A program made the position numbers and the translations under genes. Positions 1-29,704 of a DNA stretch of 36,975 nucleotides are shown one piece after another. How positions within the stretch are numbered: the stretch's first letter is position 1; each line of letters opens with the position of its first letter. Location: NCBI GenBank assembly GCA_049999805.1, contig JBNGIO010005721.1, forward strand, positions 43,654-80,628. The letters are read 5' to 3'. The notes under the pieces are model-generated. The model was not told the origin of the DNA. It did no database searches and saw only the letters and a list, made by a program, of their open reading frames with translations. This DNA comes from Folioceros fuciformis. Taxonomy: Eukaryota.

Positions 1-420
1 GTCGGGTAGGGACGACTCGGAGAGAGAGAAAATCCTAGAGAGAGAAAGAGAGAGAGAGAGTGGGGCCCACGAGTGGTAGCCCGAAAGACGACGGTAGTAG
101 TCCATTGGGGAACGGAGGGTAGTCCGGTGGCCCACCAAGAGTAGTCCAGGGGAAGGTAGTCCCTAGTGCGACTGGGTGGTACGAGAGTCGTCTGGTGGGA
201 GAAGTAAGGGGGTTGGGTGAGGACCGAGCACTGGACGTGTGTGCGTGGGTCAGTTGAGTTTAGGTGCTAATTGACTTTAGAAGCTAACCTGTGTAGTTTA
301 ACACGTATCATTCCCTTGGGATCGAATCCCAGAGCTACAACAACATAGAGGGCTTGTGTGGACCTCGCGGTACCCCCGGGTACCATATTTTAACCCCACA
401 CCATAGGAGAAAACGTATCA
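1..420. mobile_element. Possible LTR-retrotransposon LTR terminus or other TE remnant
   Basis: Non-coding, with an (AG)n-rich tract at 23-60, repeated TAGTCC words, a hairpin TGGGAT-CGA-ATCCCA at 317-331 and an inverted repeat GGTACCC-CC-GGGTACC at 369-384. It ends in ...ACGTATCA (also at 303-310), compatible with an LTR ...CA end. No PBS, second LTR or TE ORF is visible. Confidence 0.25.
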
Positions 421-726
421 CCATAATCGATCCCTGGTATTTGGCTCGAGACGATTCTTTAAAGACCAGCGTAGCTTGCCGCGGGACCCCATCTATGGAG
501 TAGATTCCGATGGTGGGTGTGCCTTCGTTGCATGGATTGTGCTCTCCTCCCTTGCTTTTCCGCCCTGCCGCCTAGAACCCGAAATGCAGCGCAGGGTTGC
601 TTCTAGGACCTCAGTTTTGCTTTGCTATGCTTGGTTTGGCAGTAAGCAACCGTGGCGTTCAGAAGTTTCGGGTTGCCAATGTGCGGAATTTGATGTCCGA
701 GTGCTTGGAAACAAGCTAACACTAAA

Positions 727-1032
727 GCGTGGTTCTACAATCCCGAGGGGAGCGAGGACTAGACCACCCGGCATCAATTCCGCCCCAATCGGCCGGTTTC
801 TCCCGAGCACTTGCAAGGTGATGATTTTCCCCTCCCGGGCAGGCTTGGATCTTAGGGATGAGATTTGTAGCGGGAATGCTAGGGATTATGCCCAAGCTTT
901 CGTCCTTGACGTGGTTTCGTGGCAACCATTCATGCAGGGCTAGCAATTCTCATCTGGAAGCTGGATGCAGACACTTATTTGGACAACCCGGTGCTAGAGA
1001 GGATAAAAAAGGAGCGCGGGTACAATCACTGG
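727..1032 (+). pseudogene. ARD: Acireductone dioxygenase (ARD) pseudogene fragment, two exons (about 727-817 and 938-1032)
   Basis: Exon A reads AWFYNPEGSED*TTRHQFRPNRPVSPEHLQ with TAG at 760-762 where ARD has Q. A phase-1 GT-AG intron spans 818-937. Exon B reads GLAILIWKLDADTYLDNPVLERIKKERGYNHW and ends at donor GT 1033. Both match the ARD N-terminus (AWYMD..EDQRLPH / W.LDAD.Y....L.KI..ERGY). No in-frame ATG and no downstream HLHxDEEIR exon were found. Confidence 0.75.
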
Positions 1033-1596
1033 GTATGTTGGAAGTGTCAGATTCGTGCTGTGCAGCATCGGAACTTCCGGGTGTCTCCTTCCAGCGACAT
1101 GCAGGCCTTGAGGCTCTTCATCGAGGTGCCAAGACTAGGGATAAAACAAAGTAGGTGTCCTGATCAGGACTCCTACTTTGTGCCCTGTGACTGAAGCGGG
1201 CACAAACGTTATGTCCAAACTGTTTGGACTGCATACAGCTGCCCTAAAATTTATGTGAAAGAACCCATGTTCGTATCAGTATTCCATAGACACACATCTA
1301 GACATAATGAAACATTTTCTGATTGTAGAGTAAAAGATTCAAAACCTAGCCATGATGGAACTTATATACATAACTACAATTCAAAACATCATTACTAGAG
1401 AATTCCAAGCACTTGGTTACTCTTAGCGTTTAAGGTCAATTTGTGACATTCGTAAGCCGGTCTGACCAACGAGAATATCTTACTTTCGTTTGCTCATGGT
1501 GGACTTAGTACTTCACAAGAGGCTAATGAGATTTGATTTCTCACCCCATGCGTAGTCGCCTGCCACCGTCCTGGCTGTGGGCTCCAGGTCAAGGCG

Positions 1597-4296
1597 ATGC
1601 GTCGGGGCATGCTGGTGTCAACCTTACAGATTGGTGAGTGTGCCGGGATTCGACGAGAAGCTCCCGCCAAGTCCGCCTCACGCTCAGGGAGTCAATCCAC
1701 GGCAACCAACCAGGCCTCCAGGTGTAGCAGTCATAGGAGCCCAAAATTTACGCTTCCGACAAAATGTGTGGATGGGGAGGAGGTATGGGTCGATGGTCGT
1801 CGCCAGGAGCAGGAGCACTTGTGGCGACAATGGTTTCTGGATCCTTCCATGTGGTGGGACAGGAGATCAGACAAGAAGAGCTCCCGGTCGCCTGACTTCC
1901 GGCGGAAGGGGTCCGGGGAGGTTCTGTGGTTAGACAGCTTGTTTAAGCCAGCTTGGGTCGATGGGCAGCTCGTTTCCTTGGATACGCAGATCGGTCATGG
2001 TGCCTGTCCTTCCAAGTGGAGCTCTGCTTTGCTGGATAAGACTGAACCTGGAAGGCTTGCAGAATTGGATGTGGGAGTCGTTACTGCCGCGACCGTGAGC
2101 ACACTATGTCAGCAGGGGAAGCATTTTGAGGCTGTGGGAGCTTTGGAAACTTTGGGGCTGACGGACTCTGATGCAGCGATTTCTCGGGCTCTGTTTTACA
2201 CTTTGAAACTGTGTACAGTGAAGAAGGATCTGGCTGTGGGGCAGCGAGTTCATGAACTCGTTGTCGAACTCGGGTACGAGGCGGATGCCTACTTGGGGAA
2301 CCATATCTTGCGCATGTATGCATCTGGGGGTAGGTTGCAGGAGGCTATGGATGTGTTCACCAGGGTTGCCAAACCGGATGGTTTCCTGTGGGTTTCCATC
2401 ATCTCTGCGTATGCCAAGCATGGGAAGCCTAGGGAGGCCATACGTCTGTACCGTGAGATGTGCAGTTCAGGAGTGAAAGCGGATGCCCACGTATTCGTAG
2501 CTGCCCTCAAAGCTTGCACGTTGGCGGCGGACTTGGAGTCTGGCAGAAAAGTGCATTGTGATTTCTTGTACAGTGGGATTCCCCTTAACGTGTTTGTTGG
2601 CAGCTCCCTGGTGGACATGTATGCAAAGTGTGGTGATCTGAAAGCCGCACGCCAGGTTTTTGATGGCATGGCCACGAAGAATGTGATTACGTGGAATGCT
2701 CTGATATCTGGGTATGCAAAATTTGGTGAACTGGAATATGCGCACCAGGTTTTTGACAGTATGACCACTAAGAATGTGGTGACATGGAATGCTCTGATAG
2801 CTGGGTATGTTGAGCACGGGCTCGAACATGATGCACTTCTCCTGCATGGGCAAATGGAGCAAGTGGGCCTTGTTTTAGGTGATAATGTTACTTTTTCTTG
2901 CCTTCTGAAGGCCTGTGCAAGCACTAGTTCCTTACAGAAGGGCAGGCAGCTGCACTCACAGATAGTGGAAAGGGGACTGCTGGATGACATAGTGGTGAGC
3001 AACTGCCTTGTGGACATGTATGCAAAGTGTGGAGAAATGGAGGATGCACGCTGGGTTTTTGACAGCATGGCCACGAGGGATGTGGTGATATGGACTGTGC
3101 TGATTTCGGGGTACGCCGAGCAAGGGCTCGGGCACGAGTCACTTGCTCTGTATAGACAAATGGAGGAGGAGGGCCTCGTGTTGGCTGACACTGTTACTTT
3201 TGCGTGCCTTCTGAAGGCCTGTTCAAGCACTGGTGCCTTGCAGACGGGCAAGCAGCTGCACGCACAGATCGTGCAAAGGGGACTGTTGGATAGCGTAGTG
3301 TTGGGCAGCTGCCTGGTGGACATGTATGCAAAATCTGGTGAACTGCGAAATGCACGCCAGGTATTTGACAGCATGGCCATAAAGGACGTGGTTACATGGA
3401 CAGCGCTGATATCTGGATACGGTATTTGTGATGATGGTCGCAGAGCACTAGCCTGTTTCGAGGAGATGTTAGCTGCCGGTATTCGGCCTAGTGGTGCTAC
3501 TTTTAGTTGCCTTCTTGTTGCATGCAATCATGAGGGGCTGGTTCACGAGGGTCGCAAACACTTTGATTCCATGACTGAACTGCATGGCATCAAACCTAAT
3601 ATCGAGCATTACACCTGTATGATTGATCTTCTTGGGCGCGCAGGCCACTTGGATGAGGCACAGAAGATGCTGGTGTCATGTGAGGGCAGAAGGGATGTTG
3701 TGGGGCTGATGTCTTTGCTGAATGCCTGTCAAATTCACGGGGATATAGAGAGGGCGACCTGGTGCTTTGAATGCATTGTTGAGCTAGACCCCCAGGACGC
3801 AGCCGCATATGTGCTTATGGCCAATGCCTACGCAAAGGCAGGGAGGTGGACCGATGTAGACAGGGTTGAAAGACAGAGAACGGCATCAGAAGCCAACAAG
3901 AAACCTGCAGTGGCGAGCATTGAAGTGAATAAGGAGGTACATAGGTTTTTGGTAGGAGAAGCTAGAGAAGATGTTGCACTTAAAGTAGAGAGAACAACTG
4001 CTCGTCTGAAGCAGGAAGGTGGCCACGTACCTCACACGAAGTTGGTGTTGAAGCCCCTGTGCGAGAAGGAAAAGGACGACTTGCTTTGTGGGCATGCTGA
4101 GAAGCTTGCTCTGGCCTTCGGTCTCCTGAACACCCCTGGTGGTACACCTCTTGTGGTAACGAAGAATCTACGCATGTGCAGCGACTGCCACAGCTCCACC
4201 AAGATCATGTCAAGGCTTGAACAGAGAGACATCGTTGTAAGGGATGGCTACCGTGTACATCGATTCGCAGCAGGTTGTTGCAGTTGTAAGGATTGA
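1597..4296 (+). CDS. PLS-class PPR protein with E1-E2 and DYW:KP-type deaminase domain, plus N-terminal OSB-type PDF motif (candidate U-to-C RNA-editing factor)
   Basis: 899-aa single ORF with about 16 P/L/S/SS motifs, E1/E2, KKPAVASIEV (from 3898), HAEKLALA (from 4093), CSDCH (from 4177) and terminal CSCKD*. The N-terminal region contains LWRQWFLDPSMWWDRRSDKKSSRSPDFRRKGSGEVLWLD...PAWV. Confidence 0.95.
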   Translation: MRRGMLVSTLQIGECAGIRREAPAKSASRSGSQSTATNQASRCSSHRSPKFTLPTKCVDGEEVWVDGRRQEQEHLWRQWFLDPSMWWDRRSDKKSSRSPDFRRKGSGEVLWLDSLFKPAWVDGQLVSLDTQIGHGACPSKWSSALLDKTEPGRLAELDVGVVTAATVSTLCQQGKHFEAVGALETLGLTDSDAAISRALFYTLKLCTVKKDLAVGQRVHELVVELGYEADAYLGNHILRMYASGGRLQEAMDVFTRVAKPDGFLWVSIISAYAKHGKPREAIRLYREMCSSGVKADAHVFVAALKACTLAADLESGRKVHCDFLYSGIPLNVFVGSSLVDMYAKCGDLKAARQVFDGMATKNVITWNALISGYAKFGELEYAHQVFDSMTTKNVVTWNALIAGYVEHGLEHDALLLHGQMEQVGLVLGDNVTFSCLLKACASTSSLQKGRQLHSQIVERGLLDDIVVSNCLVDMYAKCGEMEDARWVFDSMATRDVVIWTVLISGYAEQGLGHESLALYRQMEEEGLVLADTVTFACLLKACSSTGALQTGKQLHAQIVQRGLLDSVVLGSCLVDMYAKSGELRNARQVFDSMAIKDVVTWTALISGYGICDDGRRALACFEEMLAAGIRPSGATFSCLLVACNHEGLVHEGRKHFDSMTELHGIKPNIEHYTCMIDLLGRAGHLDEAQKMLVSCEGRRDVVGLMSLLNACQIHGDIERATWCFECIVELDPQDAAAYVLMANAYAKAGRWTDVDRVERQRTASEANKKPAVASIEVNKEVHRFLVGEAREDVALKVERTTARLKQEGGHVPHTKLVLKPLCEKEKDDLLCGHAEKLALAFGLLNTPGGTPLVVTKNLRMCSDCHSSTKIMSRLEQRDIVVRDGYRVHRFAAGCCSCKD
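1819..1983 (+). other. PDF motif (OSB-family ssDNA-binding motif) within the PPR N-terminus
   Basis: Matches the OSB PDF consensus LW..FF.NP..WWDNR..K.NPK.PDFKHK.TGEALWL....P.WV..QL at nearly all invariant positions. Confidence 0.85.
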
Positions 4297-4608
4297 TCCC
4301 GCAAAGACGGAAAAGAAGAGTTCTAGTACAGTCGATTAAGGATGGCACAGAGCGGCTACTGTTCATCGAGTTCGTCAGGTGAAAAACCTTTACGTTTTGG
4401 AGACATGTGTTCACTGAGACCACGCTCTCTCCACGTAACGCGCCCTACGTAGCGAGTACTCCAAGTAGTCATTTGGGTCCCACCCAGTCCTGTTTGGATC
4501 CACTGCGAGGAAGTTTCCAGGTATGACGTGGACCCATTACCACGAACTTTCGAGGGCATCTTCTGTTTTGGCGGGCACAAAGTATTAAAGTGGGGCTGCT
4601 CGATCAAC

Positions 4609-4889
4609 ATGGCGTTGAGTGGGATGGCGCCACCTCGTCTCGTCTCCATTGGTACGTTGAAATGCGGCAGACCTATCGTGGAATGTCGGCGTCTGGCAAC
4701 AATGAGGTTTCATAGTGTCTGTTTTTCGACTTCTTTCTCGTTGCATCTCTCGTTTCTGATCGCACTTGTTATTACTGAATGCAGCCCCGTCTCATTACTG
4801 CGAAAAGGTGCGTGCATTTTGCTGCCGATGTGGGATGTGCTTCACTATCTGGCCCGTGAGGGGATGCATTGAGGACCTGCTGGATGCTG

Positions 4890-4922
<33 letters not shown>

Positions 4923-6099
4923 CAGGCAAGATGGGCTCTCGAACGAGCTGGTGTGGAGTTCACTGAGGCTAAGCATGTGCCAGGTCTTCATCTCCTCGCT
5001 ACAAAGTGAGTGAGATGTATGTGTGGGTCGTGGATCGAGGTTGGGTGAAGGATTGTGATGAAAGATTGTGGGACTCATGGGAGGGTGGTGGAGGTTTAGG
5101 AATTTGGGGGAAGGGACGAGTTGCCCGAAGCTGGTGATCAAGGGCAGGGATGGGGAGGCGAGCAAAGTGCTGAACCAGTCGACCGAGATACTGCATTTTT
5201 CAGATTCCTATGTCGCCGAGGAGGGAGGTCGGTTGTACCCCGCGGATGAGGAGGCCAGGAAGGTGGTTGAGGAGTGGGGTGAGTTGGGAGTATGGGTTTC
5301 TGTTATTGGTTTTGCAATGATGGTATACTGAGGCTCGTGGGTGGTGTGATGTTTTGGTCGTGGGTTTCAGAGAAGAAGTTTGATGACGTCTTAGGTCCTC
5401 ATCTGCGGAGATGGGCGTACTCTTCTCTGCTCTTTCACAAATGGAGCCACCGGCTTCTCACGGCTGGTGAGTGTGGCGGAGGTTGGACATGGCCTTCGGG
5501 TCTAGGGTGCCAGCCGGAGTGTTGATGTTTGTGTGGGCTTTGCAGGAGCTTCTGCCACGGAGAGGAGAGTAGCATGGGTGATGGGACCGGTTCTGAGACG
5601 TGGGATAGCGAAAGGTGTGGGTCTGGACCAGCCCAACGCAAAGCAGAGATCCCTGGACCGGTTGCGCGAGATTTTCAAGGAGGTGGATGATGCGCTGGCC
5701 GATGGGAGGCCTTTCATCTGCGGGCAGAGCTTCACTGCTGCGGACCTGACGTTTGCTGCCCTCGGCTGTGCATGCGTTGCTGGTGCAGGGTATGATGTGA
5801 GGAAGAATTCGGCATCTCCATGCTGCCTACGAAACACATCTCTTGGCTCATGTTGATGGGTGTGGCATGGCAGGTTTCCTGACATCAACGATCCCGACTG
5901 CCCCAAAGATCTGGCTGATGAAGTGCGAGCCTTCCAGCAGACAGCAGCTGGCAAGGTAAACGATAGGGAAGCAGCGCGGGGCCCCAGTCTTGGAAATCAA
6001 TCCTTTTGCAGCTGACACTTTTGCCTTGTCTTGCTGTAGCACATAATCCATCTTTACAAGTCCGAGCGGCAAAAGGTTGTTGGGTCGAAGAGCAAGTAG
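4609..6099 (+). CDS. Glutathione S-transferase-like protein (SHYCEKARWAL type), 8 exons
   Basis: Exons joined with consistent GT-AG phases: 4609-4651, 4785-4807, 4926-5005, 5100-5278, 5371-5466, 5546-5789, 5874-5955, 6040-6099. The protein has APSHYCEKARWALERAGVEFTE, TSCPKL, QSTEIL, GQSFTAADLTFAAL and AGKHIIHLYKSER. The exon 6 donor is the least certain. Confidence 0.85.
4891..4920. repeat. (TG)15 microsatellite in intron 2 of the GST-like gene
   Basis: Perfect TG dinucleotide run directly before the TTCAG acceptor. Confidence 0.95.
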
Positions 6100-6486
6100 A
6101 ATATGGGGAGCGTCGAAGGCAAGGACGAGAGCTAAAGGAAATTGTGTTATGTGGTGATTTGTGATATTCGCTAGACCGATTTGTGAGTGTCAATTTTAGC
6201 TGAAATGCAAACGATGCGGCCATGCGTATGCACTTTATGATGCAGTAAGAAGAAACGGGAGTGTTGTTTTTAGCTATGGCAATTTGAATGATCAACTTTC
6301 TCCAAGTATTATACAGTAGCAGAAATAGCCGATTGTTGAAACAAAGTTGTGGGTTATCAGACTAGCTGGGCTTACAGTGCACTGAAGGTAGCTTTCACCC
6401 ACGTAAAGAATTTGTCTTGGTGTATGGTATAAAACTATCGTGAACCTTTGGGTACAACAAAACCTCGAAACCGTTATCTAAAGAAG

Positions 6487-7176
6487 TCACATATTCGAGA
6501 CTCGACCGTACCCAGACCTCACAAGCAGATACGACTCCACTCGATCCCCGAACAGTTGTCTGGACACATGCATGAGGAGTAATCTCGAAACGTGACATGT
6601 ACCGGTGACGAAGGTGAAAAACACACCCATACCCAACCCTCCTAGAGAAAACCAGCAGAACACGATGCCTCCGAGGATGGCTGTCCACCACCAGAGGAAC
6701 ATGTGCATGAATGAGAGGGGGAGGAAGCAGAGGAACAGTATCAAAGTCTTTATCAGCCTCGCAACTTGCCATACCTTCTCATCCAGCATGCCGGAAAGCC
6801 ATGCCTTCATGGTCTCCGAATCACTGCCACTGCAATGAGATGGAGCAGCTCTCACCGGGTCCTTCTGTGCAGAGCCAAGTGAAGGATGCTCAGCCTCCGC
6901 TGGCACAGCACAGCTGAGAGTACGAAGAAGCATAAAGTTCTTGGGTAATTTGCCAGACCATAAGCACCATAGCCGGCATTCAGGGCACTGCAAGGCCTTC
7001 TTCCCGGGCTCGGAGCCTGTCATAACCAGCTGCTCCACGCAGCCTCTGCATAATGTGTGGCCGCAATGCAGCACCAGTGGAACGTTCTGTTCTTCTGACA
7101 GCAAGACCCAGCATACAGGACACTCGGGAAGGTGCAATATTCTAACCCCCGGTTGCCGTGACCCCTTGTGATCCAT
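6487..7176 (-). CDS. RING-HC (C3HC4) zinc-finger protein with C-terminal hydrophobic/TM segments, putative membrane E3 ligase
   Basis: ECPVC...LHCGHTLCRGC...QCPECR...LPKNFMLL, followed by hydrophobic helices (LILFLCFLPLSFMHMFLWWWTAILGGIVFCWFSLGGLGMGVFFTF). Single ORF. Confidence 0.85.
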   Translation of the reverse strand: MDHKGSRQPGVRILHLPECPVCWVLLSEEQNVPLVLHCGHTLCRGCVEQLVMTGSEPGKKALQCPECRLWCLWSGKLPKNFMLLRTLSCAVPAEAEHPSLGSAQKDPVRAAPSHCSGSDSETMKAWLSGMLDEKVWQVARLIKTLILFLCFLPLSFMHMFLWWWTAILGGIVFCWFSLGGLGMGVFFTFVTGTCHVSRLLLMHVSRQLFGDRVESYLLVRSGYGRVSNM

Positions 7177-8477
7177 AGCCCGTACATGTTATCTCCTTAC
7201 TGATCCCATCATTCAGCAAACCGCTGTCCAGCTGCTCTCATCGCTGCGTGAGGAACATCACGCAAACAGTCCTCCACATCTATCCTGCCAGCCAGAAATC
7301 AACCTCTTGTGAGCCTCCTCAACCTCAAGAGAAAACCCATCATCACCAACCTGCCAAACACCAAAAACCCACAAAAACCCACTCACCTCCTGTCACCAAG
7401 ACGGACTTCAACCACTCAAGACTCCGATTCCCCCAAACCCAACAACGTATTGCCAACCCTACTGACCTCCGAAATTCCCCATCCCTACACCCATCTACCT
7501 AAAATTTCCAATTGCCCAACATCCCAAGAAGTCTCACCACACAGAGTCGCCCATCACGTGAAGCAGGTCACAAATTCTCGTCCTTTCACGGCCCATTCAA
7601 CCGCCCACCTTCTTCTAAGCGATGCCGGACCCAGGACCACAAATGCTTCACCCCAGCGGAATGCCGGGCTGGGAGTGAAGGGTGCCCATCCTGAGCCACC
7701 TAGCCTCCGCCTCCGCAGATGAAACCAAGTCCTCCTGAAACCTGAGCGCGGGGCAAGGCAGTGAAGCCTGCCCGTCCCACGGTTAAGGAATGAGCTGGCG
7801 TCTAGAAGAAAAAGAGCAGTGCATCGCACCGCTAACTCGACTCCATTCGATCGATACGATTCCAAACTCCCGCGTGCGTGCGTCTCGCCGCTTCGTGAAC
7901 TGGCAGCCCAACCTACCTCGGACGTGCGCTCCCGGCCGTGGCGCCAAACAAGCGCGCCACGTGCTTGCCAAGTCGGAACGCCTCGTGTGGATAGACTGAT
8001 GACGTCACGCCAACCTCGTGGAGCCCGGCCCGGCTCGGGCTTCTCCCGCTTTATGCAACGGAACGCGGCTTGCTTCTCACACACCCCGGCCACTGTCTCT
8101 CCCGTTCCGTTAACTTTGTGCTGGCCGGGACTAGGACTAGGGCCGCACATAAAAAATCCACGCCAACGGCGTGAGGTGCCGGGGAGTGTGTGACTAGATT
8201 CCCGTGAGTCGTGAATCTCTCGCAGGGAGTCGATGCGAGCGTGACTGTGCCTGAGGATGAATCTGCCTTAGACGTGAATTTGTCCGGAGCATGCAGGAAT
8301 TCGAGGCCTGGCAAAATGGGCAGCTCCAATTTCGATGAGAAAGAATGAAGGCTGGAATGTGAGTGAGGTGAGGAATGGCTGCAGAATGCCCGGCAGGATG
8401 CATGGCGAGCTGATGGTGTTGCTCTGCTGCTGACGGGTGCCGGCTGTGGAGCTAGCTGGCGGAAGGGAAGGGCGTAG

Positions 8478-9302
<825 letters not shown>

Positions 9303-9659
9303 GGTTGGCTTGAACTGATAAAGGAAGGCGTCATGATCTTCTTGCTAAGGAAGTGGGCATTCAACTGGACTGAGAATGAGGGAGTGGCAATTGCCTGCCG
9401 GATAGCAGAAATATCTGCACCTCCTCTGATGCTCCTCAGCCCGGAGCATGCAAGCTGTAATTTATTGTGAAGGCCGGATACATGCATCTATCAGATGCGT
9501 GGGGGTGGACGCAGGTCCTAGACTGTTGGAATGGGTACTTCGATGCAGACGTTTCCAACAATCTGTTAGGCTGTTCGCATCTATAGATTGTGGCATCTAT
9601 AGATGGTATTTAAAGTGCTCTTGTAAATGACCCAAAATCAGAGCACCGGTAACCTTTGG

Positions 9660-11739
9660 CTACCAGCGCCAGAAACTCGACGGTTTATTTGTAATGGGAA
9701 AGTTGGTCAGCACTTTGGGTAAGCTATTTGGGTTGAACTTGCGAGCAAAAAGATGACAAGGTGTCGCAACGCCGCGTATCTTGCAGTGGACATACCTCTT
9801 CCTACCCTGCCAAGCACAAAGCAGACATCTGTGTCACTCAAGTACAACTGCGCCGCGCCTGGAGACGGCAGTGAAATGGGAGAAGAAGTGATGAATATGT
9901 AATTCACACTCACATCATTACTGTCTTTGCGCTCCACCACCTTCACATTCTGCACGGGGATATAAAGTCGGATGTCAGTGCTCAAATCCTGTTAAGATAG
10001 TAACCCTACATAGACCACTGCATTTCCGGAGAGAAAATGCACTACCTGAAGCCGTCGAGCCAAATGTCTTGTGACTTCACTGTGTTGGAATTCATGAGGG
10101 TGCCACAACCCCTCTGACCAGTCCACATACGTCGTACTCCACTTCGCTATACCAGCCGGGTCCATCATCTGAGACACGAGGTCGACATTAAACATGAAGC
10201 GTGATGCTAGGTAGGTATGAATCCACAGGGGATCGACCACTTACATGCAAGAGTGTCTGTGGGTAATGCTCGTCAGGATAGCAATTTTTGTATTCGTCCC
10301 CTTTCTGTTTTCCACCAAGATGTGTCCCACGGTCAACCGAGCAGGCAAGGATTGAGGCTCCTGTGCAATGAAAACGTCTGTACTGTGCACTTGGCCTTCC
10401 TTGCAATCAGTTCATGATAAACCCACCTTGCAGAATTGCCTGAACTTCTCATAGTACAGAGTGTCACTGGCCAGGATTAAAGCATGTCGCCTTTGAATTG
10501 CAAACCACTGCAAAATAGCTCGATTGGCTTGAATCGGGATCAGCGCGAGACCCCGGAAGCCGCAAATGAAGCCAAATGAAACGAAACCAGACAAACCTGA
10601 GATCCTTTTCGCCAGTCAGTGATGAGAACTTCAGGTCCCATGCCCTCCAGATATCGCCCTCTTCCATGTGGACCGGGGTCATCAAAGCTGCAACACGAAC
10701 GCTTGCAGCTCGTCATACACGACTAATCTAACCAGCTGACAAGCAGCAGCAAAACTCAGTGTAAGACTTCTCACCATTCCAAAAAGCTGACGGGGGACCC
10801 CATCAGATAATCGTAGACGAAGTCAAAGTGCCTCAGAGGGACACACCTGTTAAAACCACAACAGGTCTCGGGAGTGTTCAGTAGCGACAGACAGTGCTTA
10901 ATACCTACAACACAACCGGATTTCCTTCACATACTTGTCTGAAAGAAGTACAAAAACTTCATTCGTCTTATCCGCAAGGGCGTGCGACAGCAACCGCCTC
11001 TCACCATCGATCATGTCTATACCGCCCCATGAGATCTGAACAAACACACATCAGAAAGGATTGACTGTCGGGACCACCATCATCGCTCTCCCGACTGCAA
11101 ACCTCCAAACAAATGTCCTGATCAATAAGGCAAACTACAAGGGGTCCACCATACAGCTTCGCTGCGGATATCTCTGCCGAAGAATGGGTCGGTCTTGTAA
11201 TGATTTTCAATGTCGGAGCCATCGTGTCGCGAGCCGTGGACATAAACACTATACCTGCCTTCGTGACCCTGCCCATATCACACCACCAAATCTCAGAGAT
11301 GACCCCGTGCAGATCCCCAAGCAACCTCTGCGACAGCCAGTTCGTCAGCTCCCACAAACTGCCCTTCACAACCCACAAATCCCACCTTGAAAAACTCAGC
11401 CCACGCTTCCTCGAAGGGCAATTCCCCAGGCGTCAGAAACATGAAGGCGACCCGGCCATCAAGATTTCGAGGCAGGCTCAGAACTTCCCTGGCACTCTCT
11501 TGCGCCCTCAGCTCCTCATCCGAATATCCCCGTGACGGACCAGGCAGTTGCTCGTCAAACTGTTCCTGCTCCTGATCCTGACCCTGCCATCGACTACAAA
11601 ACTCTGGGCCAATCCAGTCACAGGGTTGGAACGTCAAGAGGACAGGGGAAAGCGCCCATAACGCTAATGCCCCGACCACCAACACGATCACCAACCCCGA
11701 ACGCCAAACCTTCCGACCCCCCCATTTCTGGATTCTCAT
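9660..11739 (-). CDS. Core-2/I-branching (GT14-like, DUF266/BC10-like) glycosyltransferase, 10 exons
   Basis: Exons on the minus strand: 11739-11386, 11268-11155, 11035-10935, 10846-10775, 10687-10597, 10507-10427, 10304-10245, 10168-10046, 9988-9914, 9806-9660. Motifs include an N-terminal TM anchor, VAFMFLTPGELPFE, ISWGGIDMIDGERRLL, CVPL..FDFVYDYL, WRKGSQWF, NCYPDEHY, VDWSEGLWHP and PCHLFARKF. Confidence 0.92.
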
Positions 11740-12098
11740 CTTCTCTCCCTCCACAAAAACAAATCATGCAACAACTACGTGACTGTAGTGGACTGTCATC
11801 GCCACCAAATGCTTCGAAGTAGAGTGTGAAAGTCGCAACACCAGGTTATTCCTTCCCCACATGTCGCCCGTTCAAAATCCCACTAATCTACAATTTGCAA
11901 TCACCCGAGTGTATAATTTTGACACTCGGCACGCATCCCATCAAAGGAACCACAATCACCTGCCAAGCTCCGGCGTGTTATCCCCGTACTTTCCACCCCC
12001 CAGCAACCTGCAAAGCGGCGGCGTACACAAACCTCCAGGCTTCGCCAATTTCATACGACGAATTACTGACAAAAATGAGCGGACAATCTGAGCCCTTC

Positions 12099-16497: not shown

Positions 16498-19149
16498 TCA
16501 ACGAGGCCGTGGGTGGTAGCCGGCAAAGGGTGAAGCAGTCTTCCCCTGTACATATGGAGGCTCCTCCTCATCATCCAGTATGTTGTTGTGTCTGGAGTCA
16601 AGGTTGGATGAATAGCCCGCTGTCGTAATTTGGACCATAAGATCTCCCAACTTCGCAAAAATACCCTCACATTCGGGATGTTTTCCATCCCCCGCAACAA
16701 ATGCATGTGCATTCCCGCTCATGTCCACCCACCAGCTCTGTCCTGGTTCCTTCCATGCTTGTGATTCTACTCTCCTTGCTTGAATCTTCTTTGCCTCGTC
16801 TGGCATTTGGGCAGCGGCATATATGTTGGACATTAGTGCATATGGAGCAGCGTCACATACATCCGACCTGATTGCAGCTTCAAATGCAATTTGCCCCAGC
16901 TCAACGTGTCCCCACTTTTGACAAGCACCCAGTACACATTTCCAGACTGCACTCTGAGGTTGGAAAGGCATCATCTTCACTATCTCCATGGCTTTCTGGA
17001 CTTGCCCTGCACGTCCCAGGAGATCAACCATGCAATTATAGTGCTGAATTGTCGGGAAGATGCCATACTCTCTGCTCATTGTTTCGAAGTACTTTTCACC
17101 CACGTCCACAAGACCCACATGACTGCACACGCTGAGAATCCCAAGAAATGTAATTCCATCTGGCTTCACACCTTCTTGACCCATCCTGTTGAACAACTGG
17201 AAGACGACTTCACTCTCCCCTTGACGGGCATACCCCACAATCAATGCATTCCATGCGGCAACCTCTCTGGTGGGCATTGCATCAAACACCTGCTGTGCAT
17301 CCAACATGCTGGAACATTTGCCATACATATCAATCAAACTGCTACTCAAAAACGAACCACACTCGAGACCAGCTTGCAGAATTTGGCCATGAATTTGCTT
17401 TCCTTTGCCCAGTCCCGCCATACTACCACAGGCATTCAATACAGCAACGAAGGTTAGACTGTTTGGCACCACACCTTTTTGTTCCATCTGCGCATACAAC
17501 TTCAAAGCCTCTTCACCCTTCTCCATCTCAGCGTACCCTAGGATCAGGGCAGTCCAGGAAACTACATCCCTTTGAGGCATCGCTTCAAACACTCGCCTTG
17601 CATTTTCCAGGCTCCAACACTTTGCATACGCGTCCACCAGCATGGTGCCTACAAATACGTCTGACTCAAACTTTCCAGCCTTCAAATCTGTGTGGATGGT
17701 TGTCACAGTTTCCAGGCATAGTTTCCTGGCATGTATCCAACTATCACCTTCTCTCCTTCCTGATTCTGCAACTATGCTGCAAGCCTTTAGTACACCAACG
17801 TATGTTCGATCATTTGGTACCACACCTTCATGTTGCATTTTTACATACAGTTGTAACGCTTCTTGACCTCTTCCCATCTGGGCATACCCACCGATCAAGG
17901 CATTCCAGGAAACAACATCACGATGAGGCATCACTTCAAAAACCCTTCTAGCATTCTCCAAGCTCCCACATTTTGCATACACGTCCACGAGCATGTTCCC
18001 CACAAATATATTAGAACCAAACTGACCCTTTGCAATATCTGCATGGATCGCTGTGACCGTCTCCAAGCATTCCCGTTTCACAAGTATTCCAGCACCTCCC
18101 TCCCGCTCCCCAAGCTCTGCGATTCTGCTGCAGGCTTTGAGTACAGAAACGTAAGTCCGATCATTCGGATCCACACCCTTTTGTCGCATCTTCCTGTACA
18201 GTTGCAAAGCATCTTCACCTTTGTCCATCAAAGCGTAACCCAATATCATGGCAGTCCAAGATACCACACTGTGTTCAGGCATGTTCTCAAATACTCTTCT
18301 TGCACTCTCCACGCTTCCACATTTAGCATACGCATCGACTAGCATCGTCCCCACAAACGAATTTGACTCAAACCCACTATTCCGAACATCTGCATGGATG
18401 GCTGTTACAGTTTCTAGGCATTGTTCCCTCACAAGAAAACTATCACAGCCACTCTTTTGCCCCGACTCTGCAATAATACTGCAGGCCTTCAGTGCCCCAA
18501 CATATGTTCTTTCGTCCGCCAAGACAGCACCCTCCTGCTGCATCCTCGTAAACACTTGCAAAGCCTCCTTCCCCTTCTCCATCTTGGCGTAACTTGTGAT
18601 CATGGCGTTCCAGGAGACAACATCTCGATGCGGCATTTCCTCAAAAACCCTCCTCGCATTCTCCAAGCTCCCACTTTTGGCATAGGCATCCACAAGCATA
18701 GTGCCTACATACACATCAGTGTCAAACCCACACCTAACCACCTCAGAGTGGATCTCTCTGACACTTTTCAAGTCCTGCAAACTACTGCATGCTTTCAACA
18801 GAGCCACGAAGGTGTGTGACCTTGGTTCCACTCCATCTTTTCGCATTTCTTCATACAGATTTAAAGCTTGTCTCAGTTGTCCCGACTTGGTATGTTGCGA
18901 AATGAGCTCTGTCCAGGAAAATTCCCCCCTCCGAGGTCTGCAACCAGTCACAGAGCTTCTGCTAAGTTCTGTGAAAAGCATAGTCCCACTTACAGCCTGT
19001 ATCTCCCATCGTGAAGTGTTCGTGTCATCCATCCGGAATGGACACTGGACTTTGCCACGTGACAGAGCTCGATGGAGCTGGTCCGAAGGCAATCCATTAT
19101 GGTTAGTCCACCAACTTTCACACCAATTACAAGCACATGAGATAGACAT
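16498..19149 (-). CDS. PLS-class PPR (3 LL-like motifs), E1-E2, truncated WW-type E+ end
   Basis: Long ORF (first ATG at 19149; the track opens at a TTG at 19179) with P-L-S repeats. It ends WKEPGQSWWVD...HAFVAGD..HP...GYSSNLD, with no in-frame HxE/CxxC. Confidence 0.92.
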   Translation of the reverse strand: MSISCACNWCESWWTNHNGLPSDQLHRALSRGKVQCPFRMDDTNTSRWEIQAVSGTMLFTELSRSSVTGCRPRRGEFSWTELISQHTKSGQLRQALNLYEEMRKDGVEPRSHTFVALLKACSSLQDLKSVREIHSEVVRCGFDTDVYVGTMLVDAYAKSGSLENARRVFEEMPHRDVVSWNAMITSYAKMEKGKEALQVFTRMQQEGAVLADERTYVGALKACSIIAESGQKSGCDSFLVREQCLETVTAIHADVRNSGFESNSFVGTMLVDAYAKCGSVESARRVFENMPEHSVVSWTAMILGYALMDKGEDALQLYRKMRQKGVDPNDRTYVSVLKACSRIAELGEREGGAGILVKRECLETVTAIHADIAKGQFGSNIFVGNMLVDVYAKCGSLENARRVFEVMPHRDVVSWNALIGGYAQMGRGQEALQLYVKMQHEGVVPNDRTYVGVLKACSIVAESGRREGDSWIHARKLCLETVTTIHTDLKAGKFESDVFVGTMLVDAYAKCWSLENARRVFEAMPQRDVVSWTALILGYAEMEKGEEALKLYAQMEQKGVVPNSLTFVAVLNACGSMAGLGKGKQIHGQILQAGLECGSFLSSSLIDMYGKCSSMLDAQQVFDAMPTREVAAWNALIVGYARQGESEVVFQLFNRMGQEGVKPDGITFLGILSVCSHVGLVDVGEKYFETMSREYGIFPTIQHYNCMVDLLGRAGQVQKAMEIVKMMPFQPQSAVWKCVLGACQKWGHVELGQIAFEAAIRSDVCDAAPYALMSNIYAAAQMPDEAKKIQARRVESQAWKEPGQSWWVDMSGNAHAFVAGDGKHPECEGIFAKLGDLMVQITTAGYSSNLDSRHNNILDDEEEPPYVQGKTASPFAGYHPRPR

Positions 19150-19576
19150 GTTTTTCAACTGCACGACGGACAGGTGCAATCTTGTTCAGGGGAGTGCTCA
19201 GATCAACGCTTCAACAAGGTGAGCCACGACTATCAAGCTCAAGCTGTTCGCTTCTAGGTGGGCAGTCTCTGTGGCGCTGAGGAGTGCCTTAGCATAGGCG
19301 AGAAGGACCACAAATTGGTCGAGTTCAAACTGGTAGCTGATTGAATCTAGACTTTGATGAAGCAACAGCAATTCCAGCTGTCTACCGAGTGCCCACCAGA
19401 GAAGTATACCAGCAACCGCCTAGCTGGCAGTAGAGCACCACCGATGGTGTTGCCTCCCCGCCATGCCAAATCTGATTCCACATCCCCGGTATTGTGTTGT
19501 TTGTGTACTGGATTCAGTGAGTACATGTCCATCCCCACGTGCGCACTTAGAACGGGTCAACCTGCTCTTGGAATGA

Positions 19577-21790
19577 ATGCGAGAATGTACGCAGCTATCT
19601 GATAAAAGCCTCATGGGCTGGTCCCAGGTCCTGAGCTTTGGTTGTGTGTCTTCCAGTTGGCACAGGACCAAGGTTAATGCGTTGCAGAAGTCTGTGGAGG
19701 ATGTGAACTACAGCGAAGGTCTACTTCGGGAACAAGACAGGTGTAGACTTGATATTACTGTGCAATTGAAGCGGTCTCAATGGGAAGAGTACCACTGGAC
19801 GTCGCTAATAGCGCAGCAGATAAGTTGTGGGCAAGGTAGGCAGGCTCTGAAGGAGTATGAGGAAATGCGGGGTAGTGGAGTGGAGCCAGGGCCACGCACC
19901 TTCGTTTCCCTGTTGAAGGCTTGCAGTTCCTTGCAAGACCTGGAAAGTGCGAGGAAAATTCACGCAGAGGTGGTAAGAAGTGGTTTCGAGAAAGATTTGT
20001 ATGTAGGAACCATGCTTGTGGATGCCTATGCCAAATGTGGGAGCATAGAAAATGCTAAACGTGTGTTTGAAGAAATGTCTCATCGGGATGTAGTGTCCTG
20101 GACCGCAATGATCCTGGGGTATGCGCAGGTGAACAAGGGGGAAGAGGCTTTGCAGCTGTATACACAGATGCACCAGGAAGGCGTGGTCCCCAACAACAGA
20201 ACGTACGTCGGTGCACTGAAGGCTTGTAGTGCCATCGCAGAATCAGGAAAATGCACTGAACTTGCAAGAAGACAATGCCTCGAGACTGTGAGGGTCATTC
20301 ATGCAGACCTTGCAAAGATGAAGTTTGAATCAAATGTGTATGTGGGCACAATGCTAGTGGATGCGTATGCGAAATGTGGCAGCCTAGAAAGTGCTCGACA
20401 GGTTTTTGACAAAATGCCTTTTCACAACGTGGTTTCATGGACTGCCCTGATACTAGCGTATGCCCAGATGGATGTGGGTGAAGAAGCTTTAGAGCTGTTT
20501 GTGCGAATGCGACAGGAAAGTATTGTTCCGAACCACCGGACATACGTTTGTGTTCTGAAGGCTTGCAGTGCCATTGCAGAATCGGGGGACAAAAGAATCA
20601 GTGGTGCAGGAATTTTGAAAAAGAAGTGCCTGCAAGCTGTCGAAAGTATCCATGCTGATGTGAGGAAGGACAATTTTGAGAGGGATGTATTTGTAGCGAC
20701 GATGCTAGTGGATGTGTATGCGAAATGTGGGAGCCTGGAGAATGCAAGGCGGGTGTTTGAGAGCCTGCCTCATCGTGATGTGGCTTGCTGGAATTCGATG
20801 ATAGCCGGATATTCCCAGATGGAAAAGGGTGGAGAGGCTTTGCAACTGTTCCGAAGGATGCAGAAAGATGGCCTTGTACCAGATGATCGAACATATGTAG
20901 CTGTACTCAACGCTTGTGGATCTCTGGCAGGACTAGAGATGGGGAAGGTGGTCCATGCGCAGATTTTGGGAGCGGGCCTGGAGGCTGGCCTTTTCATGGC
21001 AAGTAGTTTAATTGACATGTATGCTAAATGTTCGAGCATGGCGGACGCACGACAGGTGTTTGATGCAATGCGCGCAAGAGATATCGTGGCATGGAATGCT
21101 TTGATTGCAGGATATGCTCGACAGGGAGAGAGTGGAGCCGTCTTTGACTTGTTTGAGAGGATGAAGGAAGAAAGTGTAAAGCCAAACGATATCACATTTC
21201 TGGGTATTCTTATTGTATGCAGTCATGTGGGTCTTTTGGACAGTGGACAGAAGTACTTCGAGGCTATGAGCAGTGAGTACGGCATCACTCCTACTATCCA
21301 ACACTACAGCTGCATGGTTGATCTACTTGGCCGATCTGGCCAAGTTCACAAAGCCATGGTGATGGTGAGGATGATGCCATTCGAACCTGACAGTGCTGTT
21401 TGGAAATGTGTTTTGGGAGCTTGTCAGAAATGGGGTAACATTATGCTTGCAAGACAGGCGTTTGATTGTGCAGTGGGTTTGGATCCAGGCGATGCCGCTG
21501 TATATGTTCTTATGGCAAATATATATTCGGCTGCAAACATGCCAGAAGAGGCAACGAAGATTCAGGCAATGAGAGTGGAGGCAGGAGCATGGAAGGAACC
21601 AGGACGAAGCTTTTGGATTGATATGAACGGGGAATCTCACGTATTTGTGGTAGGTGATATGGACCATCCTGACAGTCTACTCATATATGCCATGTTGCAA
21701 GAACTTCGGATCAAGACGTGCAGAGAAGAAGGATACGCACCCCTTCCTGATTGCATGGCAGATGAAGGGGCTATTGCTGACAAGAGTTGA
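19577..21790 (+). CDS. PLS-class PPR (2 LL-like motifs), E1-E2, truncated WW-type E+ end
   Basis: 737-aa ORF ending WKEPGRSFWID...HVFVVGD.DHP...GYAP, with no deaminase signature. The N-terminus is uncertain. Confidence 0.92.
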   Translation: MRECTQLSDKSLMGWSQVLSFGCVSSSWHRTKVNALQKSVEDVNYSEGLLREQDRCRLDITVQLKRSQWEEYHWTSLIAQQISCGQGRQALKEYEEMRGSGVEPGPRTFVSLLKACSSLQDLESARKIHAEVVRSGFEKDLYVGTMLVDAYAKCGSIENAKRVFEEMSHRDVVSWTAMILGYAQVNKGEEALQLYTQMHQEGVVPNNRTYVGALKACSAIAESGKCTELARRQCLETVRVIHADLAKMKFESNVYVGTMLVDAYAKCGSLESARQVFDKMPFHNVVSWTALILAYAQMDVGEEALELFVRMRQESIVPNHRTYVCVLKACSAIAESGDKRISGAGILKKKCLQAVESIHADVRKDNFERDVFVATMLVDVYAKCGSLENARRVFESLPHRDVACWNSMIAGYSQMEKGGEALQLFRRMQKDGLVPDDRTYVAVLNACGSLAGLEMGKVVHAQILGAGLEAGLFMASSLIDMYAKCSSMADARQVFDAMRARDIVAWNALIAGYARQGESGAVFDLFERMKEESVKPNDITFLGILIVCSHVGLLDSGQKYFEAMSSEYGITPTIQHYSCMVDLLGRSGQVHKAMVMVRMMPFEPDSAVWKCVLGACQKWGNIMLARQAFDCAVGLDPGDAAVYVLMANIYSAANMPEEATKIQAMRVEAGAWKEPGRSFWIDMNGESHVFVVGDMDHPDSLLIYAMLQELRIKTCREEGYAPLPDCMADEGAIADKS

Positions 21791-22821
21791 TCACTGAGCT
21801 TAATGATGAATCTGTCGGACACCAGGTTAGTGCAGAAATGCAAACCAGGCATCTATGACACACCTCTATCCAGAGAGCTACGTCTGGAAGACGCTGAGGA
21901 CAATGATGCCATCGAGGCCAGTAACTGCGGCTCCTCCATGCTCTTTGATTGCTGCTATCGAAACCGGTAAGTGAGGCCCCGCCGTGCCCTTTGATTGCTG
22001 CTCGTTACAATGCTAGCTGCCAGGTGACAAGCAGGCATAGGCGTGCGATGGAAGTGGTCAGGCCAGTGAGGTGATGACGAGAGTGTAGCCGCTGTGTTGC
22101 TTTAGATGTCGCGTTGGAAACAACATGCCGGATGATGGCAGGAAGAAGTTCCATCTCTGAGCTTGGAATACTTCTGATTCTCCGGTCAGATGGGTGTACA
22201 AACAGAGCGGGCCTCTGTGGGTGAGTTACCAATGTCCACTTCAGAGCTGACAGTCCAGAGGGTTAGAGCATGCGGTTGTCATTCACGCTCTATGGGTTCA
22301 ATCCTTCTTTCTGCACCAGAAGCCTTGGCCATCTCTGTCTTCGATCGCTGAAAGTCTTATCTTCCCCGCATGTTCGATTCTTGCGTCTCTAGAAATTGCA
22401 AGGATCCCCAGAAAGCGAGAGGTTCAGCTGTTGTAGATGTCAAGATCTGTAGTACAAGGTGGCCCACAGGTCTGTTTCAAGCGAAGGTGGTCGACATCTT
22501 CATAAAGGTTTCCGCATCTTAGAGGCGGTGTGCTCACAGCAAAGCCGTCCTTGCTTCAACGTTACTAAATACGCATGCAGCCACTCCGCTACCGTTGAAG
22601 TACAACTCTTGCGGACGCTGCAATCTCTTGCAATAGTCATCTCCCTTCCCGCAATGCTGCCAAGAGGCTCATCGACATGCTCATCGCCCATCAGACATTC
22701 GGGCATCAATTTCAGGTGCGATGATGTTGCAGGTCCACCAGCCGCCGAGCCAGCGGAAGAGTGCAAGGCAAGCAAAAGTTTTCTGGTTTGGGAAGCAACT
22801 CATCTGGTGCAGGAATTGTGA

Positions 22822-29653: not shown

Positions 29654-29704
29654 TTTCACACAAGAAAGCCCCACCACCACCCTTCCATCTTCCAAAAGCC
29701 CTTT

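Follow-up and report, generated by a model that had tools for sequence, protein, structure and literature searches.

The window (the whole stretch of 36,975 nucleotides from Folioceros fuciformis analyzed here) contains, at positions 1597-4296 of the forward strand, a single open reading frame (ORF) of 899 codons followed by TGA. The frame is free of internal stops, and no intron has to be invoked to read through it. The encoded protein (P0001) begins with a leader, continues with one PDF motif, a linker and a PLS-type PPR array, and closes with an E motif and a KP-type DYW domain. The leader (residues 1-70; 1597-1806) is a presumed organelle transit peptide; it contains 9 Arg and 10 Ser, compared with only 6 acidic residues. 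It is followed by the PDF motif (residues 71-130; 1807-1986) and by a linker that is poorly conserved among the relatives (residues 131-195; 1987-2181). The PPR array (approximately residues 196-713; 2182-3735) is recognized by the Pfam models PPR, PPR_1, PPR_2 and PPR_3, with the PPR family matching 9 stretches (E = 3.5e-76). The E motif region (approximately residues 714-767; 3736-3897) corresponds to a Pfam E_motif match at residues 714-776 (E = 3.7e-15), and the DYW domain (residues 768-899; 3898-4293) to a DYW_deaminase match at residues 809-899 that spans profile positions 1-91 of 93 (E = 6e-33). Pfam identifies no family in the first 168 residues, where only a chance-level match was obtained; there is no Pfam model for the PDF motif. 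The features of PLS-class PPR editing factors, namely tandem PPR repeats with an E motif behind them and a DYW-type domain with HxE and CxxC, are all present. The gene product is probably a nuclear-coded, presumably organelle-directed PLS-class PPR RNA-editing factor.

The DYW domain belongs to the KP type, which is associated with U-to-C editing, and is DRH-like. KP variants have been described as having an altered PG box (K-P), H-A-E, Met replacing Val before CxxC and no xHP; in hornworts, according to the same paper, they end in a D-R-H or G-R-P triplet (PMC9478123). All KP marks, namely the K-P-A-x-A box, H-A-E, the Met before CxxC (here C-S-D-C) and the absence of the xHP insert, are found in the window protein, which bears out the assignment made in the sequence-only reading. 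A Lys is present at position 88 in our numbering, counted from Met92; Lys88 is reported to be essential in KP U-to-C editing (PMC11845758). The last residue of the domain is the conserved Asp; the two that would follow are missing, which leaves the D-R-H/G-R-P triplet incomplete. The TGA (4294-4296) stands where the relatives have an Arg codon, two codons before their ends (D-R-H or G-R-P). Behind position 4291, the loose-end consensus of paralogous contigs continues in frame, by our reading, as Gly-Arg-Pro-stop. Given the loss of the last two residues of the DYW domain, this particular copy may be impaired. The hornwort DYW:KP factors of the DRH and GRP types (PMC9478123) share the PPR array, the E motif, the HxE...CxxC signature and the KP marks with the window protein; the latter differs in the additional N-terminal PDF motif and in ending after the Asp.

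According to reviews of OSB proteins, the PDF motif comprises some 50 residues and is marked by a conserved Pro-Asp-Phe signature. A profile of this motif was derived from 186 instances in 73 proteins that contain an OSB-type SSB-like domain, including proteins named in the source as OSB1 and 'organellar single-stranded DNA binding protein 3'; PPR proteins and window sequences were excluded. Against this OSB-only profile, residues 71-130 score 63.4 bits (E = 6.4e-22), and the match covers positions 2-60 of the 61 in the profile. The profile search proposed in the sequence-only reading thus yields a significant match, and the span originally assigned to the motif (1819-1983) lies entirely inside it. 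OSB motifs have 17 columns with a conservation of 80% or more. The window motif retains 15 of them and deviates in the other two by K>R and H>R replacements immediately after P-D-F (R-R versus the K-H of OSB). The OSB motifs themselves score a median of 80.6 bits, with 9.7% of them below 63.4, so that the window motif falls in the lowest tenth of this range. AlphaFold2 predicts for residues 62-140 (pLDDT 88.7, pTM 0.72) a compact fold with a short strand region between two flanking helices; the Trp residues of the motif are invariant. Structure-based searches yielded no counterpart of this fold: Foldseek produced no match in the PDB at E<=0.001 (best 6.4), the best VIA-align hit among 48,161 chains (Z 5.0) lies inside the noise stated for the tool, a PDB sequence search matched, for some alignment rows, the PPR part only (9kfx), and ESM Atlas gave no usable match.

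In a six-frame scan of the window, residues 71-130 are the only PDF motif. The stretch upstream of it that had been singled out as a possible degenerate half copy (residues 44-66; 1726-1794), and that is possibly a decayed tandem PDF copy, comes out as marginal because residues 1-70 score only 0.9 bits against the OSB profile, a value matched or surpassed by 30 of 2000 shuffles, the Smith-Waterman alignment of the half copy with the PDF core (score 35) is equaled or exceeded by 36 of 5000 shuffles, and the stretch aligns with unconserved leader in the three closest relatives. The complete motif is a different matter. Among four KP relatives, mean pairwise identity is 48% in the PDF motif and 47% in the PPR array, compared with 20% in the linker and 13% in the leader, that is, the motif is conserved as strongly as the array. 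Two of the three KP relatives of the window protein, P0101 and P0238, contain degenerate positions in the motif, one of them lacking the Pro of P-D-F and the other the second Trp of W-W-D.

The window protein and the OSB proteins, both presumably organellar, have in common the motif of about 60 residues, including the P-D-F signature itself and the Trp, Asp, Arg and Lys positions on its flanks. The OSB proteins combine an SSB-like OB fold with one to three PDF motifs located C-terminal of it, whereas the window protein has a single, N-terminal PDF motif with PPR repeats after it. No SSB-like domain was detected in the window protein, either by Pfam SSB at E<=1 or by an iterated profile of the OSB SSB-like domain. 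On the motif tree (58 columns, few supported branches), the distribution of PPR and OSB labels requires 5 label changes versus 82.7 in shuffles. The PPR-borne motifs form a lineage of their own, and the fern OSB motifs group with OSB rather than with the fern PPR motifs. These fern OSB controls weaken a purely taxonomic explanation for the grouping of PPR-borne motifs, although other lineages could still be grouped taxonomically. The missing OB fold, the N-terminal position of the motif and its separate group on the tree indicate that the PDF motif is a module held in common with OSB and that the window protein is not a member of the OSB family. The separate lineage is in keeping with a single old fusion, or a few of them, that would have spread with the expansion of PPR proteins.

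An exhaustive motif search of 1.84 billion representatives yielded 562 proteins at E<=1e-3. In view of this number, the failure of a word-indexed search with residues 40-135 to return any match at near lengths reflects a limit of the word index. Among the best 150 representative matches, 10 proteins (11 by Pfam) combine PDF with PPR, and the PDF motif comes first in 10 of 10. The best 120 PDF-bearing proteins of 301-2000 residues include 60 PPR proteins and 59 OSB-like ones; in all but one of the 60 PPR proteins (59), the motif lies on the N-terminal side of the repeats. The motif is also present in 34 of the 120 whole-protein homologues listed; because the search words included the motif, 34/120 and 60/120 demonstrate recurrence and not frequency. 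An SSB-like domain was found in none of the PDF-PPR proteins of either set (0/10 in the best 150 and 0/60 in the best 120). The named sources are Sphagnum species, Calypogeia fissa, Diphasiastrum complanatum, Adiantum capillus-veneris and Pteridium aquilinum transcripts. The motif is present in 0 of 17 seed-plant PPR proteins, and all seed-plant names among the best 120 belong to OSB-like proteins. The typical database protein contains a leader, 1-3 PDF motifs and a PLS-type PPR array, often with E and DYW; the same domain order as in the window is seen in Diphasiastrum KAJ7570437.1, Adiantum KAI5076972.1, Sphagnum compactum CAM6033764.1 and the Calypogeia fissa entries. These proteins are annotated as hypothetical or plain PPR. 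They differ from the window protein in that most have a DYW domain with H-S-E and D-Y-W (C-to-U) or none at all. Overall, the layout occurs with DYW:PG, with DYW:KP or without a DYW domain. As far as these sequences tell, many PLS-type PPR proteins of land plants other than seed plants have PDF followed by PPR as their family layout, and the notion of a singular, domain-shuffled editase has to be abandoned.

The association with the KP type that the sequence-only reading proposed to examine did not materialize either. Within one comparison set, the PDF motif is present in 4 of 14 H-A-E proteins and in 15 of 33 H-S-E proteins, and a further 26 PDF-PPR proteins of that set lack a DYW domain. In the best-120 PDF-bearing set, 34 of 35 DYW domains are H-S-E and 0 are H-A-E. 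Enrichment of the motif in the KP clade is rejected on these two comparisons (4/14 versus 15/33, and 0/35), and the DYW domain found most commonly beside PDF is the ordinary C-to-U (H-S-E) form. The combination of PDF with the KP type is limited, among the proteins seen, to the window protein and P0101, P0178 and P0238.

The arrangement, which the sequence-only reading did not know as a standard class, is absent from the PPR literature searched. No paper that joins the PDF/OSB motif with PPR was found there, although the primary OSB papers and papers from 2020 may mention it, and the terms 'OSB' and 'PDF' are absent from the main text of a 2026 survey of editing factors (PMC13386178). The accessory domains of PPR proteins listed in a review are RRM, LAGLIDADG, SMR, NYN, CBS and SAP, with PDF missing from that list (PMC9459714). 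Parallels described in this review are PPR4 (N-terminal RRM), PPR-SMR and PRORP (NYN), in which a helical-repeat RNA reader is likewise combined with a small nucleic-acid-related domain. These are P-class proteins with unrelated domains, whereas the window protein is a PLS-class editing factor with a motif of the ssDNA-binding type.

The ORF, the Pfam matches and the profile agree in placing an OSB-type PDF motif between the leader and the repeats of a PLS-E-DYW:KP protein, as the sequence-only reading had it, and we consider this architecture practically certain. The fusion could be an artefact of reading if the motif were part of another gene located upstream, or of a leader that is not translated, and the protein started after it, yet the chance of this is minimal. 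The motif and the repeats share one stop-free frame, and the sole in-frame Met between the start codon and approximately residue 250 sits inside the motif. An exact contig of 516 bases from run X1 covers positions 1796-2311 and so connects the motif with the start of the PPR region; a second exact contig covers 3600-3924. None of the sequencing runs that contain the sequence is on record as RNA; run X1 (labelled 'RNA?') is taken to contain spliced RNA because one of its contigs has six GT..AG joints on the neighboring gene. The artefact explanation draws on the fact that the longer contig begins at 1796, short of the start codon, which leaves the 5' end and the start codon undocumented; X1 has no contig on 1201-1600 either, a gap that carries no evidence about the 5' end. 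A true fusion is supported by independent proteins, transcript-derived ORFs of Pteridium among them, which show the same domain order in 59 of 60 cases in one set and in 10 of 10 in the other. It is also quite improbable, if less so, that the motif in the window is an inherited, functionless relic in a copy drifting towards a pseudogene. Such a relic would be compatible with the score in the lowest tenth of OSB motifs, the two replacements beside P-D-F, the DYW domain cut two residues short by a TGA at an Arg codon of the relatives, the degenerate positions in P0101 and P0238, and the absence of the motif from 10 of 14 H-A-E proteins, which implies that PDF is dispensable for the KP type. Decay of this kind is difficult to reconcile with the intact 899-codon ORF, with the 15 of 17 conserved columns, with the array-like conservation of the motif in four relatives and with the exact contigs from the spliced-RNA-containing run that cover it.

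If the motif is functional, its role may be sought in what is reported for OSB proteins. According to reviews, the PDF motif of AtOSB1 alone suffices for ssDNA binding, OSB1 and OSB2 favor ssDNA over dsDNA or RNA, and ssDNA binding is the only function that one review reports for the motif. PPR repeats bind RNA with a polarity that places the N-terminal end of the protein towards the 5' side. By analogy with OSB, on which the tether to ssDNA, R-loops or the nucleoid suggested in the sequence-only reading likewise depends, the PDF motif could act as a sequence-unspecific single-stranded nucleic-acid grip at the N-terminal end of the protein, on the 5' side of the bound RNA, a mechanism to which we give slightly less than an even chance. 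Such a grip might add affinity for the target RNA or, alternatively, hold the factor on nucleoid ssDNA, so that editing would take place close to transcription. The preference of OSB for ssDNA over RNA is an argument against a mere additional hold on RNA, while tethering an RNA editor to DNA is a conjecture. Another possibility, which we regard as unlikely, is that PDF on PPR proteins is a protein-protein module that mediates self-association or docking to OSB or other nucleoid proteins or, in plants without MORF, serves as a built-in helper that stabilizes the PPR array. The predicted compact fold, in which the invariant Trp residues could form a core or an interface, is compatible with such a module, as is the tetramer reported for AtOSB2 in a review. 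MORF proteins are reported from seed plants only (PMC13386178), where the motif is found in none of the 17 PPR proteins; this complementarity comes from biased samples and is a correlation only. The binding of ssDNA as the sole reported activity of the motif points away from a protein-protein module.

Taken as a whole, the explanation that we consider probable is that the window encodes a PDF-PPR factor of the KP type with an old, recurrent layout, in which PDF would provide a grip on single-stranded nucleic acids. A broader scenario, which is similarly unlikely to the protein-protein module, is that PDF serves editing factors as a built-in helper wherever land plants are without MORF, with one origin before the split of bryophytes and vascular plants and a loss in the seed-plant line, where MORF arose. 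As such a helper, PDF would couple the editor to single strands of the nucleoid or the nascent transcript, or would raise RNA affinity in cis. Were this the case, the PDF-PPR proteins would amount to a major subclass of editing factors that has so far gone undescribed, and would hint at how editing proceeds without MORF.

On its own, the locus is of modest interest: it adds one PDF-PPR member, one of four seen with the KP type, whose DYW domain ends slightly early. The customary picture of a PPR editing factor comprises a transit peptide, a PLS array and the E and DYW domains. The present comparison shows PDF, a second and independently folding motif with reported ssDNA-binding activity, to be a regular N-terminal part of many editing factors from mosses, liverworts, lycophytes and ferns and among hornwort-type sequences. 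This offers a testable handle on how the editing factors of non-seed plants work without MORF helpers and on a physical link of editing to the nucleoid or to transcription. Synthetic PPR-DYW editors, which are built from consensus C-terminal and PLS parts, may discard a functional N-terminal module.

The 899-codon single ORF at 1597-4296 on the plus strand encodes a PPR editing factor in which Pfam recognizes PPR repeats (PF01535, E 3.5e-76, 9 stretches; PPR_1, PPR_2 and PPR_3 also match), an E motif (residues 714-776, E 3.7e-15) and a DYW deaminase-like domain (residues 809-899, E 6e-33, profile positions 1-91 of 93). Residues 1-168 match no Pfam family beyond one chance-level match, so Pfam has no model for the PDF motif, a module of the organellar ssDNA-binding (OSB) proteins, that the sequence-only reading placed there. 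Within the PPR gene, the minus strand has an antisense ORF of 412 codons (2289-3527) with repeats that follow the PPR periodicity; it is interpreted as a consequence of the repeat structure and not as a gene. Five long PLS-type PPR ORFs are found elsewhere in the window on both strands (16498-19179, minus; 19577-21790, plus; 22822-26016, plus; 27143-29653, plus; 29705-32587, minus), each ending in an E-type region with no DYW domain in the same ORF, and the PDF motif is present in 0/5 of them; the region 16498-32587 is a local cluster of PPR genes of a different subtype.

When residues 40-135 were searched exhaustively with phmmer against 1.84 billion representatives, 562 proteins matched at E<=1e-3 (133 at E<=1e-10, 15 at E<=1e-30), many with several matched stretches per protein, up to 13. 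Among the best 150 of these 562, the Pfam SSB domain is present in 41 (2/9 plus 39/141) and, with an iterated profile, an OSB-type SSB-like domain in 74; the source names include 'protein OSB1, mitochondrial-like' (Populus) and 'organellar single-stranded DNA binding protein 3' (Euphorbia). A profile derived from OSB motifs only (186 motif instances from 73 OSB-type proteins; a kinesin fusion, PPR proteins and the window sequence were left out) matches residues 71-130 (1807-1986) end to end with 63.4 bits (E 6.4e-22). Of the 17 columns with at least 80% conservation among OSB motifs, the window motif retains 15, the two misses being K>R and H>R immediately after P-D-F. This significant match, obtained with the kind of HMM that had been proposed as a check, together with the conserved columns confirms the main observation of the sequence-only reading, a PDF motif within a PPR editing ORF. 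The motif is on the weak side for its family (OSB motifs reach 80.6 bits at the median, with 9.7% of them below 63.4), and a scan of all six frames of the window detects no other.

The combination of this motif with PPR repeats recurs in other plants. Among the best 150 of the 562 phmmer matches, it is seen in 10 proteins (11 by the Pfam count), the motif being N-terminal of the repeats in 10/10 of those scored with phmmer, and several short matches look like further N-terminal fragments of such proteins because a PPR-like repeat directly follows the motif. Whole-protein homologues (4959 at E<=1e-20) contain the motif in 34 of the best 120, a sample that, like the others used here, was drawn with a motif-containing query and thus shows recurrence and breadth, not frequency. 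Within these 120, the motif is present in 20/29 entries from Diphasiastrum, 3/3 from Calypogeia, 2/2 from Sphagnum and 4/17 from Adiantum (weak or partial in three cases), and in 0/9 from Ceratopteris, 0/3 from Cryptomeria and 0/14 with the prefix Gb_, which we take to denote Ginkgo. A profile of 16 short motif sequences, run against 5.8 billion proteins with lengths of 301-2000 residues, gave 225 matches at E<=1e-5 among 3818 candidates; the best 120 of these 225 comprise 60 PPR proteins, 59 proteins with an OSB-type SSB-like domain and one with neither, and none of the 120 combines PPR repeats with the SSB-like domain. The 60 PPR proteins come from Sphagnum species (35), Diphasiastrum (12), Calypogeia (3), Adiantum (1) and other sources (9), and all entries among the 120 with seed plant names are OSB-like. 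The motif precedes the repeats in 59/60, the exception being P0325, which has a second motif mid-protein. In PLS-type PPR proteins across the non-seed land plants, the PDF motif is a regular N-terminal component.

A degenerate half copy of the motif had also been suggested at 1726-1794. With the OSB profile, residues 1-70 reach 0.9 bits, which is equalled by 30/2000 shuffles, a local alignment of residues 40-70 with the motif scores 35, which is equalled by 36/5000 shuffles, and the stretch sits in a leader that is unconserved in the three closest relatives. Because tandem motifs occur in relatives (9 of the 60 PDF-PPR proteins among the best 120 of 225; one copy in 51, two in 7 and three in 2), a decayed upstream copy is plausible, if marginal.

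Some motif-bearing database entries are of another kind. P0005, a 730-aa protein with 8 PDF-like stretches, and its cluster mates come from the dinoflagellate Effrenium voratum, so that either the motif appears to extend outside the green plants or the genes are contaminants or were transferred. OSB-type motifs also occur in odd long gene models (P0042, P0050 and P0003), namely a kinesin of Coptis chinensis (1526 aa), a Striga hermonthica protein of 1063 aa called 'Interactor of constitutive active ROPs 2' and a Kingdonia uniflora protein of 1160 aa with 13 motif stretches; the probable explanations are gene models that were fused or wrongly joined, or genuine proteins with many motif copies.

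According to the available part of PMC9478123, KP-type editing domains differ from PG-type ones in the PG box, in H-A-E versus H-S-E and in the last triplet, have Met before CxxC where PG has Val, frequently lack xHP and, in hornwort variants, end in D-R-H or G-R-P. The DYW domain encoded in the window has a K-P-A-x-A box, H-A-E and Met-Cys-Ser-Asp-Cys, and lacks xHP. The position pairing with the terminal Asp is Lys, as in the D-R-H relatives; in the aligned G-R-P relatives it is Glu or Gln in 3/4 and Thr in P0178. At 4291-4296 the protein ends with the Asp and a TGA, the latter where relatives have an Arg codon and run two residues further. Four of five sequence criteria place it in the KP subgroup, and the KP box, H-A-E, Met, missing xHP, Lys and early TGA identify it as a predicted DRH-like KP factor whose C-terminus is slightly shortened. 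After 4291, paralogous contigs of the sequencing run X1 depart from this sequence; their consensus, by our own reading, continues in frame as Gly-Arg-Pro-stop.

A link of the motif to the KP clade is not borne out. Among the 19 proteins with the motif and an alignable DYW domain, 15 are H-S-E and four H-A-E, namely the window protein, P0101 and P0178 (both ending G-R-P) and P0238 (ending D-R-H); by type, 4/14 H-A-E proteins carry the motif versus 15/33 H-S-E proteins, and a DYW domain is absent from another 26 PPR proteins with the motif. Of the 60 PDF-PPR proteins among the best 120 of 225, 35 have a DYW domain, 34 with H-S-E and 0 with H-A-E. The earlier interpretation is supported in part: the domain combination is real, and it is neither a KP specialty nor singular. 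The same layout is found in 60 of the best 120 PDF-bearing proteins.

In a FastTree phylogeny of 230 near-full-length motifs (178 OSB, 52 PPR), the two labels change 7 times versus 47 in shuffles (0/500 as low), and in a tree of 378 distinct motifs (286 OSB, 92 PPR) 5 times versus 82.7; the motif tree spans 58 columns and is weakly resolved, and its supported branches are compatible with a single change. The nearest rows of fern OSB motifs (Adiantum P0333; P0345) are OSB motifs only, with no fern PPR motifs, so taxonomy alone does not explain the grouping. The motif in the window is nearest to those of other PPR proteins (P0004, P0101). The PPR-borne motifs can be read as having few origins, possibly one.

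Run X1, labelled only 'RNA?', contains 70% of the sampled words of 1400-4500, a stretch that includes the PPR ORF. One 2604-base contig (4218-7758) starts within the final 80 bases of this ORF, crosses the downstream plus-strand gene with six GT..AG introns (4650-6038) and then shows a CT..AC joint at 7283-7537, i.e., a minus-strand intron; neighbouring transcripts overlap or were merged by the assembler. Six GT..AG joints in one contig, aligned to 1-12000, indicate that X1 contains spliced RNA. Exact contigs correspond to 1796-2311 (516 bases, from just upstream of the motif into the PPR start, the 5' end of the message lying outside the coverage) and to 3600-3924. Over the motif-coding stretch (1860-1925), up to 9 contigs align at 90-99% likeness with differences of their own, e.g., at 1917, which hints at several expressed paralogues with near-identical motifs in the same organism. 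Independent support for a contiguous motif-PPR message comes from the transcript-derived Pteridium aquilinum ORFs P0087 and P0131, each with motif and repeats; that the fusion is a reading artefact is hardly credible.

Mean pairwise identity between the window protein and the three motif-bearing KP relatives is 48% in the PDF motif and 47% in the PPR array versus 13% in the leader and 20% in the linker (53% in the E region, 67% in the DYW domain), so the motif is kept like the RNA-reading repeats while its flanks drift. It is improbable that the motif is a relic in this gene's own, slightly truncated copy. An AlphaFold2 model of residues 62-140 (34-row alignment; pLDDT 88.7, pTM 0.72) has two helices, with short strands between them around the W-W-D segment and the P-D-F segment; no solved structure is convincingly similar to it (best Foldseek E 6.4, best VIA Z 5.0). 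PPR proteins bind RNA with the N-terminal end facing the 5' side, and the motif sits at this end, where it might increase the affinity for single strands unspecifically or keep the factor at nucleoid ssDNA near transcription. Reviews, as far as available, attribute one to three PDF motifs to each OSB protein, ssDNA binding to the AtOSB1 motif alone, and a preference for ssDNA over dsDNA or RNA to OSB1 and OSB2. By analogy, an unspecific single-strand grip or a nucleoid ssDNA tether close to transcription is our tentative preference. A protein-protein or MORF-like helper module would accord with the report, in the available part of PMC13386178, of MORF proteins in seed plants only, and no PDF-PPR protein was seen among the seed plant entries sampled here; we consider this role unlikely.

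The window protein belongs to the PLS-E-DYW editing factors. Although the PDF module is common to it and the OSB family, it is not a member of that family because it has no OB fold and differs in domain order. The accessory domains of PPR proteins named in the available part of a review are RRM, LAGLIDADG, SMR, NYN, CBS and SAP (PMC9459714). Full-text literature searches retrieved no paper linking the PDF/OSB motif with PPR proteins, the three relevant ones of five papers with the term 'PDF motif' being all on OSB, and neither 'OSB' nor 'PDF' occurs in the main text of the 2026 kingdom-wide editing-factor survey (PMC13386178). The PDF-PPR architecture thus seems undescribed; the proteins themselves are already deposited publicly, annotated as hypothetical or simply as PPR proteins. 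More than this one gene, what deserves attention is the PDF motif as a regular N-terminal component of PLS-type PPR proteins in non-seed land plants.
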